Shown: positions 24,528 to 51,914, counted from the first letter of the stretch. The stretch: 64,000 bases of DNA from Escherichia coli (GCF_002854065.1 NZ_CP024147.1); one strand, 5' to 3'. Program-made: numbers and translations. The notes: generated by a model from the sequence alone, not told the origin.

Positions 24528-24803
24528 GTGGCTTCTGTTTCTATCAGCTGTCCCTCCTGTTCAGCTACTGACGGGGTGGTGCGTAACGGCAAAAGCACTG
24601 CCGGACATCAGCGCTATCTCTGCTCTCACTGCCGTAAAACATGGCAACTGCAGTTCACTTACACCGCTTCTCAACCCGGTACGCACCAGAAAATCATTGA
24701 TATGGCCATGAATGGCGTTGGATGCCGGGCAACCGCCCGCATTATGGGCGTTGGCCTCAACACGATTTTCCGCCATTTAAAAAACTCAGGCCGCAGTCGG
24801 TAA
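24528..24803 (+). CDS. insA: IS1 InsA
   Basis: Identical to the other InsA copies. Confidence 0.95.
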
Positions 24804-25225
24804 CCTCGCGCATACAGCCGGGCAGTGACGTCATCGTCTGCGCGGAAATGGACGAACAGTGGGGATACGTCGGGGCTAAATCGCGCCAGCGCTGGCTGTT
24901 TTACGCGTATGACAGGCTCCGGAAGACGGTTGTTGCGCACGTATTCGGTGAACGCACTATGGCGACGCTGGGGCGTCTTATGAGCCTGCTGTCACCCTTT
25001 GACGTGGTGATATGGATGACGGATGGCTGGCCGCTGTATGAATCCCGCCTGAAGGGAAAGCTGCACGTAATCAGCAAGCGATATACGCAGCGAATTGAGC
25101 GGCATAACCTGAATCTGAGGCAGCACCTGGCACGGCTGGGACGGAAGTCGCTGTCGTTCTCAAAATCGGTGGAGCTGCATGACAAAGTCATCGGGCATTA
25201 TCTGAACATAAAACACTATCAATAA
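24722..25225 (+). CDS. insB: IS1 InsB reading frame
   Basis: Identical to InsB of copies 1 and 3. Confidence 0.9.
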
Positions 25226-25263
25226 GTTGGAGTCATTACCCGCCGCGAGATAAAGGAAAAATC

Positions 25264-25749
25264 ATGCTTTCCGACTGGTACGATTTATGGTTTTACACGC
25301 CGGAACTGCGACGTCCTATGCCTATTTCACGGCAACAAAGATTAATTGGGCAAATCTCTAACGGCGATGTCATTGTCACTAACTTTGAATATGCCTATGA
25401 CTCGACCCTGGTGGGGGAAGTCACGTGTGCTGAAAAGCAGTGTTACAAGCTGGCGCTGGTGCGTAAATCGGCGGATATCACCTGGCCGAAGGTTATCTAT
25501 TACGTTGAAAAAGACGGTGATAATCGCCCGTGGAAGGCAGCCTATTACTCGCAGGATGACCAGTTAATAAAAGAAGTGTTGTATCAGGATTTCCAGCCGG
25601 TGCTGGGGAAAACGCGACCCATGAAAATAACCGTTACCGATGTCCGTCACGGCAATAACTATTCAGTGATGGAGTACAGCGATGTTCGTCTGGAATCGCT
25701 GCCGGAGTTTCATTTCACCAAAGAGTATATTCAGCGAGGTGCGAAATGA
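25264..25749 (+). CDS. Hypothetical 161-aa protein with no signal peptide, probably the 3' remnant of a gene truncated by IS1 copy 2 (LolA-like fold is a guess)
   Basis: ORF begins 24 bp after the IS1 end; the frame is open back to the IS1 boundary; its stop overlaps the start of the next gene (ATGA). Confidence 0.5.
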   Translation: MLSDWYDLWFYTPELRRPMPISRQQRLIGQISNGDVIVTNFEYAYDSTLVGEVTCAEKQCYKLALVRKSADITWPKVIYYVEKDGDNRPWKAAYYSQDDQLIKEVLYQDFQPVLGKTRPMKITVTDVRHGNNYSVMEYSDVRLESLPEFHFTKEYIQRGAK

Positions 25750-27134
25750 AACGTACGCTGAAGATCTCTTCGTTGCTGTGTGTTGCGCTGCCGTTGACGG
25801 TACAGGCGGATTGCCTGTCAGGTGACGAGGTGGCACAAAACAGCGATGTGACGCTTTACGAGCAGGTGTCTTATGTCAATAAACAGGCTTCGGCCTGGCA
25901 GATTGCAGGCAAAAATCCCTACACACGTCACAACGGTTATCAGGAGGCGGGGATTGGCATCAATAGTGGTTGTTCGATAATCGACAATACGCTGGACCTT
26001 AAGCTCAATCTGTATGGAATAAACGAATATGCGCTTAAACCCGCAGGGAAATTCGAAACGGATGATAGCCGCACACGTGCGTTAATTAACCGCCTCAGTC
26101 TGGTCTATAGCGCCTCGGACAGCGTTCAATTTGAAGCAGGCAAATTTGCCGCGCCGTCAGGAATGTTCTTTTTGCGTTCGCCTTCTGATTTGCAAACGCA
26201 TTATTACACCGGCTTCCAGTCGACACGTTTGCACGATCCCAAAATGACATCGGCGTATCAGGCGTCATCGTGGGGCGCAAAAATGAACTTGGATACACGC
26301 GATTATGCGTTTTCGGCGAGCGTCATACCGAAGTTAGCCACCATCGACAAACGCTATGTGACGTCTGGCAACTGGTCTGCTAATCAGCAGGGAAACAGCG
26401 ACGAAGCCTATCTGCTGAGCTACAGCGATCATCGCTTTGGTGAGCACACACCGACAGTCAATGTGCGGCTCGGGCCATCGCCGTCACTCGCGCTGTCTGA
26501 CAGTTATCACTACACCCCGCAGCTGACGCTGAATGTCGACGCAGCCTACCACCGCTCCCAACAATGGCGGCATCTTTCCCACCATGAGACGGCGCAGGTC
26601 GAGGAATATCAGTTTCCGGATTCGCTCTATGAAACGAAAGACGAAAGCGGCGTGGAGCTGGCCCTGGGGGGGCAATACACCAGCGATAGTTTCAGCGTGT
26701 TTGGCGTTGAGTATTACTTTCAGAGCGAGGGGTATTCGCGTGCTGAACAGCGTCAGCAGCGCGAGTTAATTGATTTCCTCAACACCACAACCGGTTATGC
26801 GCCACTGGATCAGGCATTTGATTCTTACAAATACCTGATGGCTTCAGAAATCAGCAATACCGCCAATCAGGGGATGCTGCAGGGTAAGCACTATCTGAAC
26901 GCCTGGGCCAGTCTGCCGCTGGCGGGAGAGTCGACGCTGCAGCCTTCGCTGGTGGTGAATCTCGTTGATGGCAGCACGTTGCTGGGCCTGCATTATTCCA
27001 CGCCGCTCAGCACTATCAGTAACCAGCTTGAAACCTATGCCGGTGGCTATAGCGCGCTGGGAAGTCGGTACTCCGAATTTGCGCTTTTTGGCGACACGTT
27101 AGGCCTTTATTTGGGCTTTAAATACTATCTATAA
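25746..27134 (+). CDS. Putative outer-membrane protein (462 aa) with cleavable signal peptide
   Basis: MKRTLKISSLLCVALPLTVQA signal; long alternating-polarity, Y/G/S-rich sequence; C-terminal ...LGFKYYL. Confidence 0.6.
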   Translation: MKRTLKISSLLCVALPLTVQADCLSGDEVAQNSDVTLYEQVSYVNKQASAWQIAGKNPYTRHNGYQEAGIGINSGCSIIDNTLDLKLNLYGINEYALKPAGKFETDDSRTRALINRLSLVYSASDSVQFEAGKFAAPSGMFFLRSPSDLQTHYYTGFQSTRLHDPKMTSAYQASSWGAKMNLDTRDYAFSASVIPKLATIDKRYVTSGNWSANQQGNSDEAYLLSYSDHRFGEHTPTVNVRLGPSPSLALSDSYHYTPQLTLNVDAAYHRSQQWRHLSHHETAQVEEYQFPDSLYETKDESGVELALGGQYTSDSFSVFGVEYYFQSEGYSRAEQRQQRELIDFLNTTTGYAPLDQAFDSYKYLMASEISNTANQGMLQGKHYLNAWASLPLAGESTLQPSLVVNLVDGSTLLGLHYSTPLSTISNQLETYAGGYSALGSRYSEFALFGDTLGLYLGFKYYL

Positions 27135-27144
27135 GGATAAAGAG

Positions 27145-28089
27145 ATGATGAATAATGCTTCACAACCGACAGTACTGCTTTTTGCCGGTCAGGGTAATCC
27201 GGTTATTGGCATGGGCAGCGATCTTTGGGATCTCAATGCCAGTACAAAACATATCTGGGATTGTGCCAGCGATATTTCCGGGCTGAACCTGCGTCGCCTG
27301 TGTCAGAAGGGGCCGATGAATCGCCTTATTCAAACGACGGTACAACAACTGGCGGTGACCGCAATCAATGTAACGCTCTATACCCTGTGCCGTGAACGTC
27401 TTGAGAATTTAACGGTTGTGGGGTCCTGCGGACACAGCGTTGGTGAATACAGTGCGCTCTACGCTGCCGGAGCTATTTCTCTTGAGACGCTATTTGGCAT
27501 GATTCACTTCAGAGCCAGCCTGATGCATGACGAAAGCCAGAGAAATAAAGGCGCAATGCTGGCGGTTAAAGGCATCAACCGCGAACAACTGCAGACGATG
27601 ATTACGGAATCAGGCATTGCGCTGGATATTAGCTGTGATAACACGCCGCGCCAGCAGGTTATTGGAGGAACGCAGGCTGCGTTGAATGAATTTGCCACGC
27701 TGCTGATGGCCGCTGGATACGAACCGGTTAAACTCGGTGTGAGCGGTGCTTGGCACACGCGTTTGATGGAGGACGGCGTTCAGGCAATGCGCGATTATCT
27801 TGCCGGACTGGATATCGCTTCGCCAGAGCATCAGGTTCTGATGAACGTAACAGCAAAAAGCGAGGTCGCTCCGTCAATTATCAAAGAAAATCTCTCATTA
27901 CACTTAACTCATACGGTGAAATGGACTGAATCTCTCGATACATTTCTGAATATGCCAACCTCGGTAGCCTTCCTTGAAATAAGTAATAAGCCCTATTTGG
28001 GGAATATGTTAAACGATTTTGCTGGTGTGGATCAGCAACGAGTTATGCATTGTCGTAAAGCATTTAGTGATGCGAAGGTATTCAAATGA
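27145..28089 (+). CDS. FabD-like acyltransferase (malonyl-CoA:ACP transacylase family, 314 aa)
   Basis: Active-site-like GHSVGE and N-terminal [14 protein letters not shown] resemble FabD GHSLGE / PGQGSQ motifs; possibly the intact counterpart of the K-12 ymdE fragment. Confidence 0.65.
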
Positions 28090-29072
28090 TTCCTGATTAT
28101 TTAACTTTTATTCGCTTTCAGGATAAACGAAGTCTGATATACATTTATGCTATTGGACTTATTCTGATAGGCTTTTATTGGAAAAATGCAGGATTTACTT
28201 TTCCATCAGAGGATATTGGTGTCGTTAGTGGGATTCTGGCCCTGGTGCTGTATAATTTTATTTTTGATCTCAAGGCGTACTGGGCTTATAAATGCGTCAC
28301 GAAGAATATCGATTTTTCGTGGTTTAAGAAAAAGCAGAACCACAAAATAGAATTATTTCTTACGCAACCTCTGGTGGCAGGATTTCTGTCGTTAATCATG
28401 TTGAGTGCAATGAGTTGGGGGCTATACCAGCGTCTACCCTCGTTATATGCGCTGTTCCTGATTTCGTTACTTGGGCCGTTGGTTATCTTTCTGCTGTTTC
28501 GGATGATCCGCACCAGTTATGTCAAGCAGGTCGCTATTTCAGTAGCGAAAAAAGTAAAATATAAAAGTCTGACTCGCTATGTGCTGCTTTCGGTGTGCAT
28601 CTCAACGGTTGTTAACCTGCTTACTATCAGCCCGTTGCGTAACAGTGATTCTTTTGTGATAGAGGGGCAGTGGTTAACGTTTAAATCGATAATTGCATTG
28701 CTCATTCTTTGTGGCGTAGTGTTGGCGATTAATCTGTTTTTTCTGCGCTTCTCCAGGCGGTACGCTTTTTTGGGCAGGCTTTTTTTGCAGGAAATCGATC
28801 TGTTTTTCTCCAGTGAAAATGTGTTGTCGACCTTTTTTGCCAAGCCGCTTTGGCTTCGGTTATTCATATTGCTGGTTATTGAAGTGATGTGGATTACGCT
28901 GGTGTCGGTATTGGCAACGCTTGTGGAATGGCGGATTTGGTTTGAAGCCTATTTTTTACTCTGCTATGTACCGTGCTTAATTTACTATTTTTTCTATTGT
29001 CGATTTCTCTGGCATAACGATTTTATGATGGCATGTGACATGTATTTCCGTTGGGGGCATTTTAATAAGTGA
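28086..29072 (+). CDS. ycdU: YcdU polytopic inner-membrane protein (328 aa)
   Basis: Many predicted TM helices; length and sequence match my recollection of YcdU; ATGA overlap with the upstream gene. Confidence 0.8.
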
Positions 29073-29203: not shown

Positions 29204-29463
29204 CCCGGTGTGTGCAATATACGAAAAAAAGCCCGTACTTTCGTACGAGCTCTTCTTTAAATATGGTGGTGAGGGGGGGATTGACTCGCTTCGCTCGCCC
29301 TGCGGGCAGCCCGCTCACTGCGTTCACGGTCTGTCCAACTGGCTGTCGCCAGTTGTCGACCCCTGGACGGGGCTTCTCATCCCCCCGGTGTGTGCAATAT
29401 ACGAAAAAAAAGCCCGTACTTTCGTACGAGCTCTTCTTTAAATATGGCGGTGAGGGGGGGATT
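29204..29463. repeat. Two direct copies (29204-29282 and 29384-29463) of a ~79-bp segment covering the serX 3' end plus its terminator, separated by 101 bp of GC-rich DNA
   Basis: Copies differ only by one extra A and one C/T change; the first copy ends with a pseudo tRNA 3' end tggtggtgagggggggatt. Confidence 0.85.
29404..29431 (-). terminator. Rho-independent terminator of serX
   Basis: On the minus strand, hairpin gctcgtac / gtacgggc followed by T8, 13 nt past the tRNA 3' end. Confidence 0.7.
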
Positions 29464-29532
29464 CGAACCCCCGATACGTTGCCGTATACACACTTTCCAG
29501 GCGTGCTCCTTCAGCCACTCGGACACCTCACC
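29445..29532 (-). tRNA. serX: tRNA-Ser (GGA), 88 nt
   Basis: Reverse complement GGTGAGGTGTCCGAGTGGCTGAAGGAGCACGCCTGGAAAGTG...GGTTCGAATCCCCCCCTCACCGCCA; long variable arm; encoded CCA. Confidence 0.95.
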
Positions 29533-34878: not shown

Positions 34879-34995
34879 CTTTTTATCCGCTTCCATCATA
34901 TCCAGAAGAATAATAGAGCCTGAAGAGATATCGTCCAGAGGGTGATGCTGCCAACTTACTGATTTAGTGTATGATGGTGTTTTTGAGGTGCTCCA

Positions 34996-35271
34996 GTGGC
35001 TTCTGTTTCTATCAGCTGTCCCTCCTGTTCAGCTACTGACGGGGTGGTGCGTAACGGCAAAAGCACTGCCGGACATCAGCGCTATCTCTGCTCTCACTGC
35101 CGTAAAACATGGCAACTGCAGTTCACTTACACCGCTTCTCAACCCGGTACGCACCAGAAAATCATTGATATGGCCATGAATGGCGTTGGATGCCGGGCAA
35201 CCGCCCGCATTATGGGCGTTGGCCTCAACACGATTTTCCGCCATTTAAAAAACTCAGGCCGCAGTCGGTAA
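34996..35271 (+). CDS. insA: IS1 InsA
   Basis: Identical to the other InsA copies. Confidence 0.95.
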
Positions 35272-35693
35272 CCTCGCGCATACAGCCGGGCAGTGACGTC
35301 ATCGTCTGCGCGGAAATGGACGAACAGTGGGGATACGTCGGGGCTAAATCGCGCCAGCGCTGGCTGTTTTACGCGTATGACAGGCTCCGGAAGACGGTTG
35401 TTGCGCACGTATTCGGTGAACGCACTATGGCGACGCTGGGGCGTCTTATGAGCCTGCTGTCACCCTTTGACGTGGTGATATGGATGACGGATGGCTGGCC
35501 GCTGTATGAATCCCGCCTGAAGGGAAAGCTGCACGTAATCAGCAAGCGATATACGCAGCGAATTGAGCGGCATAACCTGAATCTGAGGCAGCACCTGGCA
35601 CGGCTGGGACGGAAGTCGCTGTCGTTCTCAAAATCGGTGGAGCTGCATGACAAAGTCATCGGGCATTATCTGAACATAAAACACTATCAATAA
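35190..35693 (+). CDS. insB: IS1 InsB reading frame
   Basis: Identical to InsB of copies 1 and 2. Confidence 0.9.
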
Positions 35694-35853
35694 GTTGGAG
35701 TCATTACCCGTCCAGAGAACGTTGAATATTATGTAATTTTCCTGTAATTGCCAGCGATTGTTTAAGGTGCTGCAAGAGAGCTGTCGCCTGCAAAGAAGGT
35801 TTAGTGATCAACAATAATGTATGACCATGAATACTATGGACTTCATTAAACAT

Positions 35854-50548: not shown

Positions 50549-50942
50549 CATTTCACTCTTACTTCTGCTGTACGCCTTCCACTGAAATAATCAGATCCAC
50601 TTCCTGAGAAGCTGGACCTAAATCTGTCTTGATATTGAAGTCCTTGAGCTTAATTTTGCCTTCGGCCTCGAAGCCTGCACGTTTACCACCCCACGGGTCG
50701 TCGCCCTGACCAATTAATTTCGCTTCCAGCGTGACGGGTTTGGTTACACCATTCAGCGTCAGATCGCCGGTAATATCCAGTTCGTCACCGTCTTTCTTCA
50801 CGCTGGTGGAGGTGAATGTTGCCTGTGGATATTTTGCGGTATTGAGGAAATCCGCACTGCGAAGATGTTTATCGCGTTCGGCGTGGTGGTGATGCTGCCA
50901 ACTTACTGATTTAGTGTATGATGGTGTTTTTGAGGTGCTCCA

Positions 50943-51218
50943 GTGGCTTCTGTTTCTATCAGCTGTCCCTCCTGTTCAGCTACTGACGGGGTGGTGCGTA
51001 ACGGCAAAAGCACTGCCGGACATCAGCGCTATCTCTGCTCTCACTGCCGTAAAACATGGCAACTGCAGTTCACTTACACCGCTTCTCAACCCGGTACGCA
51101 CCAGAAAATCATTGATATGGCCATGAATGGCGTTGGATGCCGGGCAACCGCCCGCATTATGGGCGTTGGCCTCAACACGATTTTCCGCCATTTAAAAAAC
51201 TCAGGCCGCAGTCGGTAA
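50943..51218 (+). CDS. insA: IS1 InsA
   Basis: Identical to the other InsA copies. Confidence 0.95.
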
Positions 51219-51640
51219 CCTCGCGCATACAGCCGGGCAGTGACGTCATCGTCTGCGCGGAAATGGACGAACAGTGGGGATACGTCGGGGCTAAATCGCG
51301 CCAGCGCTGGCTGTTTTACGCGTATGACAGTCTCCGGAAGACGGTTGTTGCGCACGTATTCGGTGAACGCACTATGGCGACGCTGGGGCGTCTTATGAGC
51401 CTGCTGTCACCCTTTGACGTGGTGATATGGATGACGGATGGCTGGCCGCTGTATGAATCCCGCCTGAAGGGAAAGCTGCACGTAATCAGCAAGCGATATA
51501 CGCAGCGAATTGAGCGGCATAACCTGAATCTGAGGCAGCACCTGGCACGGCTGGGACGGAAGTCGCTGTCGTTCTCAAAATCGGTGGAGCTGCATGACAA
51601 AGTCATCGGGCATTATCTGAACATAAAACACTATCAATAA
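51137..51640 (+). CDS. insB: IS1 InsB reading frame (R65S variant)
   Basis: YDSLRK here versus YDRLRK in the other copies. Confidence 0.9.
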
Positions 51641-51914
51641 GTTGGAGTCATTACCCGGCGTGGTTAGTATCGACGCTGGTGGTGTTAATTGTCACATTCA
51701 CTTTATCGGCAGCTGGATTTTTTTCATCAAAGGTAAAAGTACCGTCGAAATCTTTAAAGGTGCCATATAACCAGCTATAGCCAAGATGCTGGATGCGGAA
51801 GTTAACAAAGGCGTGCTGACCTTCTTTGTCAATTTTGTAATCGGCGGCAACCGCTGAACCGGCAGAGAACATCAGGGACGCGAAGGTTAAACCAAGCAGG
51901 CTTTTTTTCATTTT

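Follow-up and report, generated by a model that had tools for sequence, protein, structure and literature searches.

Do four tightly spaced genes between an insertion sequence and a tRNA gene in an Escherichia coli chromosome constitute an envelope system in their own right? The question is raised by a 64,000-nucleotide stretch of E. coli DNA (GCF_002854065.1, NZ_CP024147.1; hereafter 'the window'), in which four open reading frames (ORFs) at 25264-29072 encode a truncated LolA-like protein, a 462-amino-acid putative outer-membrane protein, a paralog of malonyl-CoA:acyl carrier protein transacylase (known as ymdE in K-12) and the predicted membrane protein YcdU. A preliminary description, made from the sequence alone, took the four genes for a translationally coupled operon that acylates or exports a lipidic product. 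Here we conclude that they are very likely the stranded tail of a 15-gene lipid synthesis and export cluster of the O-island 47 (OI-47) type, the remainder of which was removed by an IS1-mediated deletion.

The four ORFs are very likely the tail of a truncated 15-gene cluster

In strain GF3-3 and in O157:H7 Sakai (ECs_1284-1298, ~14.8 kb), the interval between dgcT and serX contains an intact array of 15 co-directional genes, the final four of which correspond to the window ORFs. The first seven encode an AcpS-type phosphopantetheinyl transferase (PPTase), a FabG-like ketoreductase (KR), a FabZ-like dehydratase (DH), an acyl carrier protein (ACP; ECs_1287 in Sakai), a GcvT-like protein, a fused ketosynthase-chain-length factor (KS-CLF) and a third KS-like protein; these are followed by a 317-amino-acid orphan, a LolD-like ABC ATPase, a 218-amino-acid orphan, a MacB_PCD/FtsX permease, the LolA-like protein, the outer-membrane barrel protein, the malonyl transacylase and YcdU. 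Upstream of the cluster, the same dgcT-serX island carries an EAL-domain gene, a regulator, a fimbrial operon and a two-partner secretion pair. The island is O-island 47 of EDL933, or S-loop 71 of Sakai (bioRxiv 10.1101/2020.04.13.038984; PMC3893438). In the window the chromosomal order is pgaA, dgcT (ycdT), IS1, the four ORFs, serX and ghrA, with serX occupying a position identical to that in GF3-3, CUWW06 and Sakai.

The IS1 element that bounds the remnant on the left (Table 1) is flanked by two differing 9-bp sequences, GATCTTAAG and CGCCGCGAG, i.e. there is no target-site duplication. By BLAST, the left flank aligns to GF3-3 until 1 nt before the start codon of the island EAL gene, and the right flank picks up within the LolA-like gene of the intact island (position 12007 of locus L001). 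Relative to GF3-3, ~29.1 kb is absent, and with it the genes for AcpS, KR, DH, ACP, the GcvT-like protein, the KS-CLF fusion, the third KS and the MacB-type ABC exporter, as well as ~91 codons at the 5′ end of the LolA-like gene, which include its signal sequence. Since the target duplication is missing and both flanks map onto the intact island, we attribute the truncation to an IS1-mediated adjacent deletion. A promoter and terminator scan from IS1 to the first ORF gave counts no higher than those of shuffled sequence, and we therefore make no regulatory claim for this segment. Given that the tail has no synthase, ACP, PPTase or pump, that its carrier lacks a signal peptide and that the native promoter has been deleted, it cannot perform the function of the cluster; in that role it is almost certainly non-functional.

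The tail is inherited with the synthase and eroded from the 5′ side in E. coli

The order from the FabZ-like gene to the acyltransferase gene is the same around barrel homologs in Mixta, a Neisseria sp. and Aeromonas veronii, and in two of these YcdU is encoded although no gene had been called for it. A scan of species-representative genomes yielded 25 loci, from Enterobacter, Kosakonia, Mixta, Izhakiella, Leclercia, Buttiauxella, Silvania, Tenebrionibacter, Rahnella, Serratia, Klebsiella oxytoca, Acinetobacter sp. ANC 4558 and Paraburkholderia silviterrae. When all 15 E. coli proteins were used as tblastn queries, the order from the GcvT-like protein through YcdU was complete in essentially every locus, and the four-gene tail was contiguous and in the same order in 26 of 30 loci; of the four exceptions, three are the most divergent clusters, in which a profile search does recover a YcdU-like ORF, and the fourth is a contig end. 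The tail is thus found in all 29 informative loci, each time with ABC, KS and GcvT-like genes upstream, and outside the E. coli deletion derivatives the four genes never occur as a separate unit. This strict order with the synthase and the ABC pump argues that the four genes belong functionally with both. It is also in good agreement with two expectations of the preliminary description, namely that the four genes should co-occur in other genomes and that gene neighbourhoods should recover the missing 5′ genes, which they did: ABC, KS, GcvT-like and other upstream cluster genes were found. The cluster is plasmid-borne in Enterobacter bugandensis and, in one instance, in E. coli, and its distribution in Acinetobacter, Neisseria, Aeromonas and Paraburkholderia is sporadic, which implies horizontal mobility.

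Within E. coli the picture is one of repeated loss. Among 5,426 complete genomes, the core KS gene is present in 383, the barrel gene and the full-length acyltransferase gene in 389 each, any part of the acyltransferase gene in 2,624 and ycdU in 2,662; half of the genomes lack ycdU. Approximately 2,270 genomes (~42%) retain ycdU alone, usually with an acyltransferase fragment, which is the K-12 ymdE state. The configuration seen in the window is found in ~6 genomes, all of which have the IS1 junction in common. The partial acyltransferase genes form discrete classes, with starts at nucleotides 417, 602 and 902 of the gene. In two classes, which keep 528 bp or 357 bp, the left junction with IS3 is identical and lies 40 bp beyond dgcT (strains CRE1493, MDK9L1, JNE181771, 98221, 537-20 and EC98, loci L036-L041), and the combination of one left junction with different remnant lengths indicates that the deletions are nested and IS3-adjacent and did not arise as unrelated events. 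The ymdE state of K-12 corresponds to the 357-bp class (PMC4951805). The cluster has been eroded from its 5′ side repeatedly, and the window represents a rare, early stage of this erosion; we infer that its remnant marks an intermediate step of decay, between the complete island and the widespread K-12 remnant (ymdE′ and ycdU).

Layout of the remnant

The ORF listing of the window and the junction sequences confirm the arrangement given in the preliminary description: four same-strand ORFs, ATGA start/stop overlaps at 25746 and 28086, and a 10-bp gap at 27135-27144, ahead of which lies a purine-rich, Shine-Dalgarno-like GGATAAAGAG. Its remark that three of the four genes look intact holds for the reading frames and fails for the system, the synthase, ACP, PPTase and pump of which are deleted.

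Table 1. Features of the OI-47-type remnant and its boundaries in the window
Feature	Position	Strand	Size	Remarks
IS1 element	24473-25240	+	768 bp	Left boundary of the remnant; inverted-repeat ends readable in the sequence
LolA-like 3′ remnant	25241-25749	+	~170 codons	Frame open from the IS1 end; contains ORF 1
ORF 1, truncated LolA-like	25264-25749	+	161 aa	
ORF 2, outer-membrane barrel protein	25746-27134	+	462 aa	ORF intact
ORF 3, malonyl-CoA:ACP transacylase paralog (ymdE in K-12)	27145-28089	+	314 aa	ORF intact; RefSeq start 27148, 313 aa
ycdU	28086-29072	+	328 aa	ORF intact
serX, tRNA-Ser (GGA)	29445-29532	-		ARAGORN; right-hand island boundary

The first ORF is the truncated one. Its frame is open from position 25241, directly at the IS1 end, and hence the ATG at 25264 is merely the first in-frame ATG and not a genuine start. 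The intact protein has 262 amino acids (L001 11726-12514), the window copy begins at approximately residue 92, and the corresponding stump of strain CUWW06 is entered in RefSeq as a pseudogene, 'outer membrane lipoprotein-sorting protein, missing N-terminus'. The truncation had been recognised in the preliminary description, and its guess that the protein is LolA-like was right: the intact ortholog matches PF17131 (LolA_like) at E 8.3e-36 over model positions 2-184 of 184, and the solved LolA-superfamily protein NE2245 (PDB 3BUU) at E 2.4e-34. The N-terminal signal-like sequence is confined to the full-length protein and, as judged from its sequence, the window copy cannot reach the periplasm.

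Gene content of the parent cluster

Domains of the cluster proteins were called with NCBIfam and Pfam profiles, and the KS active sites were inspected in the sequence. The N-terminal KS domain of the 852-amino-acid KS-CLF protein has the Cys-His-His triad (ATACTAS, NAHGTGT and FGHNIG). The C-terminal KS-like domain has lost the Cys and both His residues, which identifies the protein as a fused KS-CLF. The third KS-like protein (407 amino acids) keeps the Cys and one His and has a Tyr at the third position (Cys-His-Tyr). Among the Fab-like and GcvT-like proteins, most fall under the NCBIfam equivalog cut-offs, and so does the LolD-like ATPase (228.3 bits to TIGR02211, cut-off 307.75). An enoyl reductase (ER)-type gene was neither annotated nor detected among the cluster genes screened, which likewise contain no thioesterase or recognisable chain-releasing acyltransferase. 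The export module consists of the LolD-like ATPase, the MacB_PCD/FtsX permease, the signal-anchored 218-amino-acid protein, the LolA-like carrier and the barrel.

Four cluster proteins are without a family assignment: the barrel, YcdU and the two orphans. Pfam and NCBIfam searches of the barrel protein and YcdU, and Pfam searches of the orphans, gave nothing usable; the sole hits were a spurious Ycf12 match for YcdU (E 0.0026) and one to Glyco_trans_A_1 (E 0.24). In profile searches of YcdU and both orphans against PDB sequences the best hit was not better than E 0.6. The 317-amino-acid orphan (L001 8095-9048) is cytosolic and has invariant DSWGE, ERVGC and YGxSGC motifs; the 218-amino-acid orphan (L001 9750-10406) is helical, and its gene lies between those of the ABC ATPase and the permease. 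The gene for the GcvT-like protein (PF01571; L001 3078-4238) adjoins that of the ACP in every cluster copy (L004-L035), and in the literature searched we found no type II fatty-acid synthase (FAS) or polyketide synthase (PKS) pathway that uses a GcvT-like enzyme. Hits to the cispentacin families AmcB, AmcE and AmcF (NCBIfam) were rejected: the scores fall far short of the cut-offs, and neither the adenylation enzyme nor other Amc genes are present. In the literature, the OI-47 / S-loop 71 genes are labelled merely as 'fatty-acid synthesis genes' (PMC3224125; bioRxiv 10.1101/2020.04.13.038984), and our literature searches returned no study of the cluster product, of mutants or of its biochemistry, nor of the function of the four tail genes.

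The three intact tail proteins

The 462-amino-acid protein has no Pfam family even at E <= 10 and no NCBIfam family. Its AlphaFold2 model, built from a 35-sequence alignment, has 18 long strands (pLDDT 85, pTM 0.82), and the protein thus models as a closed, antiparallel 18-strand outer-membrane β-barrel. Together with the signal peptide, which ends VQA|DC, this is in line with its earlier description as a signal-peptide-bearing putative outer-membrane protein. Cys23 and an EYYxQxEGYS motif are invariant, Cys76 is near-invariant, and a helical insertion at residues 332-374 is conserved. One database name reads 'Lipoprotein'; we rejected this label because the Asp that precedes the invariant Cys (VQAD-C) is unlike a lipobox, and on sequence inspection a type I signal peptide is preferred. 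The protein falls outside the OprD/Occ Pfam family, and in structural alignments the barrel shares 5-12% identity with OprD/Occ, AlgE and Wzi, the values for OprD/Occ being 5-10%.

The acyltransferase has the GHSVGE motif at residues 96-101, aligned to GHSLGE of PksC and DisD, with Ser98 as the nucleophile. HMMER alignments place the other catalytic positions at His204 (SGAWHT versus SGAFHS), the catalytic His; Arg123 (hfRAslM versus rkRGelM), the equivalent of the carboxylate-binding R117 of FabD; and Gln15 (AGQG versus PGQG), the oxyanion Gln. The full Gln/Ser/Arg/His set agrees with the transacylase-like assignment of the preliminary description, which had named missing catalytic residues as grounds for its refutation. 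The score to TIGR00128 (fabD) is 178.7 bits, under the equivalog cut-off of 260.9, making the protein a paralog and not FabD itself. Its best solved relatives are the loading enzymes of trans-acyltransferase PKSs, PksC (8e-33) and DisD, with E. coli FabD (1MLA) at 1e-22. From these alignments the protein is best read as the putative malonyl-loading enzyme of the cluster rather than as an envelope-acylating enzyme. Comparison of E. coli genomes also supports the earlier statement that K-12 keeps only a fragment of this gene: ymdE is that fragment (PMC4951805).

YcdU is described as uncharacterised (PMC4951805). Searches of Pfam, NCBIfam, PDB profiles and the AlphaFold database (AFDB) gave no described family, domain or solved fold, in line with the earlier statement that no described function is known for ycdU. 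Its model is confident and all-helical (pLDDT 83) and its AFDB matches are uncharacterised proteins only. A full hidden Markov model scan of 1.84 billion representatives returned just 69 relatives. Hydropathy and the positive-inside rule suggest eight transmembrane helices with both ends in the cytoplasm, and the invariant residues (I2, P3, Y5, Q12, W66, Y68, R142, Y165, F228, G230, W309, H310, D318, M319 and R322) lie mostly in segments predicted to be cytoplasmic. Relatives recovered by deep search at just ~20% identity hold the same position in the cluster. The gene is always the final one of the cluster and, in other species, never occurs apart from it. The G+C content of ycdU in the window is 40.5%, compared with 47.5-52.3% in the three genes upstream and a window mean of 49.4%.

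Other features of the window

The window contains four near-identical IS1 copies in 64 kb, at 17160-17927 (-), 24473-25240 (+), 34941-35708 (+) and 50888-51655 (+). The copy that bounds the remnant is 100% identical to two of the others and 99.87% identical to the remaining one. Interrupted by IS1 copies are pgaB, the OI-47-type island and csgD; another copy lies near yceJ, yceO and trhO. Three of the four are located at biofilm or surface loci, which suggests an IS1 expansion accompanied by loss of surface structures in this lineage.

Downstream of ycdU, a direct repeat (29204-29282 / 29384-29463; 27 nt plus 59 nt, spacing 180-181) takes in the serX 3′ end (TGGCGGTGAGGGGG...). It resembles an attachment-site (att)-type duplication of the sort that remains after an element targeting serX, e.g. 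OI-48 / SpLE1, has integrated or excised (cf. PMC3064760). The element 3′ of ycdU is labelled 'RtT sRNA' in some RefSeq records (L038, L040, L041) and tRNA-Ser (serX) in others, which may be an annotation inconsistency or a true variation of the att site.

A model for the intact system and the weighing of alternatives

As the overall explanation we favour, with fair though not full confidence, a stranded tail together with a mechanistic model of its parent system. The model is the more tentative of the two components, and we would place it a little short of an even chance. In this model, AcpS would activate the dedicated ACP, the acyltransferase encoded in the window would load malonyl units onto it, and KS-CLF, KR and DH would build an unsaturated, polyene-like acyl chain. 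As the cluster encodes no enoyl reductase, the double bonds of the chain would be retained, as they are in aryl polyenes (APEs), and the possession of its own PPTase, ACP and malonyl loader would insulate the pathway from the housekeeping FAS. The chain would then be linked, on the cytoplasmic side, to an acceptor in the membrane, a step in which YcdU might serve as dock or transferase; candidates for off-loading are YcdU itself, given its conserved cytoplasmic face, and the 317-amino-acid orphan, given its invariant Cys-containing motifs. The MacB-type ABC pump would extract the lipid, the LolA-like carrier would take it across the periplasm, and the barrel would insert or release it at the outer membrane. 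Since the cluster has neither a membrane-fusion protein nor a TolC-like gene, export would be closer to a Lol-type hand-over than to a MacAB-TolC tunnel.

Several points weigh against this explanation. The three intact window ORFs carry no disabling mutations, and their dN/dS ratios versus the GF3-3 alleles are 0.00-0.14; the divergence is probably mostly older than the deletion, and the low ratios are therefore not used as evidence of current function. In lineages truncated long ago by IS3, ycdU is intact in six of six sampled alleles, and these carry seven synonymous-only and five amino-acid-changing polymorphic codons (binomial P = 0.0075 versus neutrality, with 78% of sites non-synonymous, six alleles and no correction for phylogeny or recombination); the adjacent dead acyltransferase fragment, with 1:2 changes, has too few to serve as a control. 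On this pattern ycdU may be more than a mere relic, possibly with a function of its own. As to the model, we infer both the unsaturated chemistry and the transport direction from gene content and the APE analogy, and the nearest fold relatives of the modelled barrel, OprD/Occ, are uptake channels, making import also a possible direction.

How far do other explanations account for the same data? An envelope operon that is self-contained and translationally coupled, with three of its four genes functional here, would fit the tight spacing with its ATGA overlaps, the three intact ORFs and the envelope-related components. Yet elsewhere the block is never alone, being accompanied by the upstream genes in all informative loci, and in E. 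coli it is found without the core in just ~6 of 5,426 genomes, always at the IS1 junction; here, moreover, the carrier has no signal peptide, ACP, KS and pump are gone, and no promoter-like site beyond chance was seen between IS1 and the first ORF. The comparative data largely refute this reading, which we regard as having next to no probability. What survives of the proposal that the genes acylate or export an envelope lipid is the envelope-related nature of the component functions; the genes are not self-standing, being the promoterless 3′ tail of a 15-gene cluster, and the acyltransferase is read as a malonyl loader. A different possibility is that the remnant has been kept for a synthase-independent function of ycdU, an autonomy that the barrel or the acyltransferase might share here. 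Besides the allele pattern described above, this would account for the 2,662 genomes with ycdU versus 383 with the core, and for the inclusion of ymdE-ycdU in the core genome of mastitis-associated phylogroup A, where the pair is over-represented and free of mutational attrition (PMC4951805). Against it stand the small, uncorrected sample of alleles, the lack of the gene in half of E. coli genomes, its strict attachment to the cluster in other species and the very low counts in a K-12 PhoB-regulon RNA-seq table, where ycdU reaches 53-64 and most of the genes listed have hundreds to tens of thousands (PMC10294691). Survival is also accounted for by position: all deletions start at dgcT-proximal IS elements and stop before serX and ghrA. 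We therefore consider an autonomous role unlikely, while rating it well above the remaining alternatives.

These concern the nature of the parent cluster. If it belonged to the APE family, the tail would represent APE export and loading genes. antiSMASH flags an 'aryl polyene' type gene in synteny cluster s1-ST11 (PMC9205054), the DH has a weak ApeI-like match, and KS plus CLF, KR, DH, a dedicated ACP, a LolA-like protein and the lack of an ER are common to both (PMC8253772). Compared with the published APE gene table, however, the cluster is without ApeH, the methyltransferase, the thioesterase, ApeD/ApeJ, the RND/MMPL protein ApeM and the DUF3261 LolB-like protein (PMC8253772), and it has AcpS, a malonyl transacylase, the GcvT-like protein, a MacB-type pump, an 18-strand barrel and YcdU, all of which are foreign to APE clusters; O157 furthermore has a genuine APE cluster elsewhere (ECs4324-4341; PMC9205054). 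Membership in the APE family is accordingly very unlikely. Slightly less so, and still improbable, is a second, redundant FAS of the housekeeping type with the tail genes as unrelated neighbours, as the FabG, FabZ, FabF, AcpS and FabD-like annotations and the wording 'additional Fab genes' (PMC3224125) might suggest. The equivalog cut-offs are missed by most of the Fab-like and GcvT-like proteins, there is no FabI/ER and no FabH, and a dead KS domain of the CLF type is a hallmark of PKSs. Moreover, strict co-inheritance across orders ties the tail and the ABC pump to the synthase and speaks for a dedicated product that is exported. The stranded tail of a dedicated lipid synthesis and export cluster consequently remains our preferred explanation.

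Taken to its furthest extent, the evidence could be joined into one bold reading: the OI-47-type cluster would be an undescribed surface-lipid route, running from a MacB-type pump via a PF17131 carrier to an 18-strand barrel and probably carrying an unsaturated lipid; the GcvT homolog, of the tetrahydrofolate type, would act on an ACP-tethered intermediate; and YcdU would be a coupler of synthase and export with a new fold and with a selectable function of its own, kept in ~42% of E. coli including K-12. This combination is unlikely to be correct as a whole.

The feature in the window is itself a case of routine IS-driven genome decay and of little importance of its own. It does, however, explain the origin of two K-12 'y-genes', the pseudogene ymdE and ycdU, which belong to a conserved, horizontally mobile and uncharacterised lipid synthesis and export cluster carried by E. 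coli O157:H7, Enterobacter, Klebsiella oxytoca and K. aerogenes, Kosakonia, Mixta and some Acinetobacter. If the product were identified, enterobacterial biology would gain a new envelope lipid, and this could bear on the reported association of the island with plant-root colonisation (bioRxiv 10.1101/2020.04.13.038984) and on that of ymdE-ycdU with bovine mastitis isolates (PMC4951805).

Comparison with known systems

The closest biosynthetic parallel is the APE cluster (apeA-R of E. coli CFT073; OI-138 of O157), which is likewise encoded on genomic islands in pathogenic E. coli and shares a type II FAS/PKS-like iterative synthase with KS and CLF, KR, DH, a dedicated ACP and no ER (PMC8253772), as well as a LolA-like periplasmic protein for lipid delivery to the outer membrane. 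The two differ in export, APE clusters using the RND/MMPL protein ApeM and the DUF3261 LolB-like ApeN where the OI-47 cluster has a MacB-type ABC pump and an 18-strand barrel, and in the KS and CLF, which in the OI-47 cluster are fused in a single protein. They differ also in the aryl-acid-activating acyl-ACP synthetase ApeH, which supplies the 4-hydroxybenzoic acid starter, and in the methyltransferase, thioesterase and ApeD/J transferases, all missing from the OI-47 cluster; no ApeH-like, AMP-ligase-type gene was present among the cluster genes of GF3-3, Sakai, Mixta, Neisseria and Aeromonas.

The fate of the remnant also has a parallel in the APE island. AcpT of K-12 has reportedly been orphaned by rearrangement from the carrier proteins of O157 OI-138, i.e. 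it too is a stranded accessory gene of a FAS-like island that is kept in K-12 and many strains while the core survives in O157. There the island is OI-138 and the stranded gene a PPTase; here the island is OI-47, an acyltransferase fragment and ycdU are stranded, and the truncations are IS1- and IS3-adjacent deletions.

Individual tail proteins resemble known families only in part. The acyltransferase shares with FabD, PksC and DisD the Acyl_transf_1 fold family, the Gln/Ser/Arg/His set and a free-standing format of ~310 amino acids; unlike that of FabD, its gene always lies between the barrel gene and ycdU and not in a fab operon, and its sequence is nearer to PksC and DisD. The barrel differs from the 18-strand barrels OprD/Occ, AlgE and Wzi in its long helical insertion (332-374) and its own EYYxQxEGYS motif, and those proteins handle small solutes or polysaccharides, whereas the cargo here is presumably lipidic.

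For export, the Lol pathway (LolCDE, LolA and LolB) is the nearest relative. Both have a MacB-superfamily (type VII) ABC transporter with a LolD-like ATPase and a LolA-superfamily carrier, a combination that implies extraction from the inner membrane followed by chaperoned transit. In the OI-47 cluster, by contrast, the ATPase scores under the LolD cut-off, there is one permease gene instead of LolC plus LolE, the carrier belongs to PF17131 and not to the LolA family proper (PF03548), the receiver is a β-barrel with no LolB-like gene, and the cargo is presumably a lipid made by the cluster and not lipoproteins. The OI-47-type cluster is therefore best described as a type II FAS/PKS-like envelope-lipid cluster with a dedicated, Lol-like export route.

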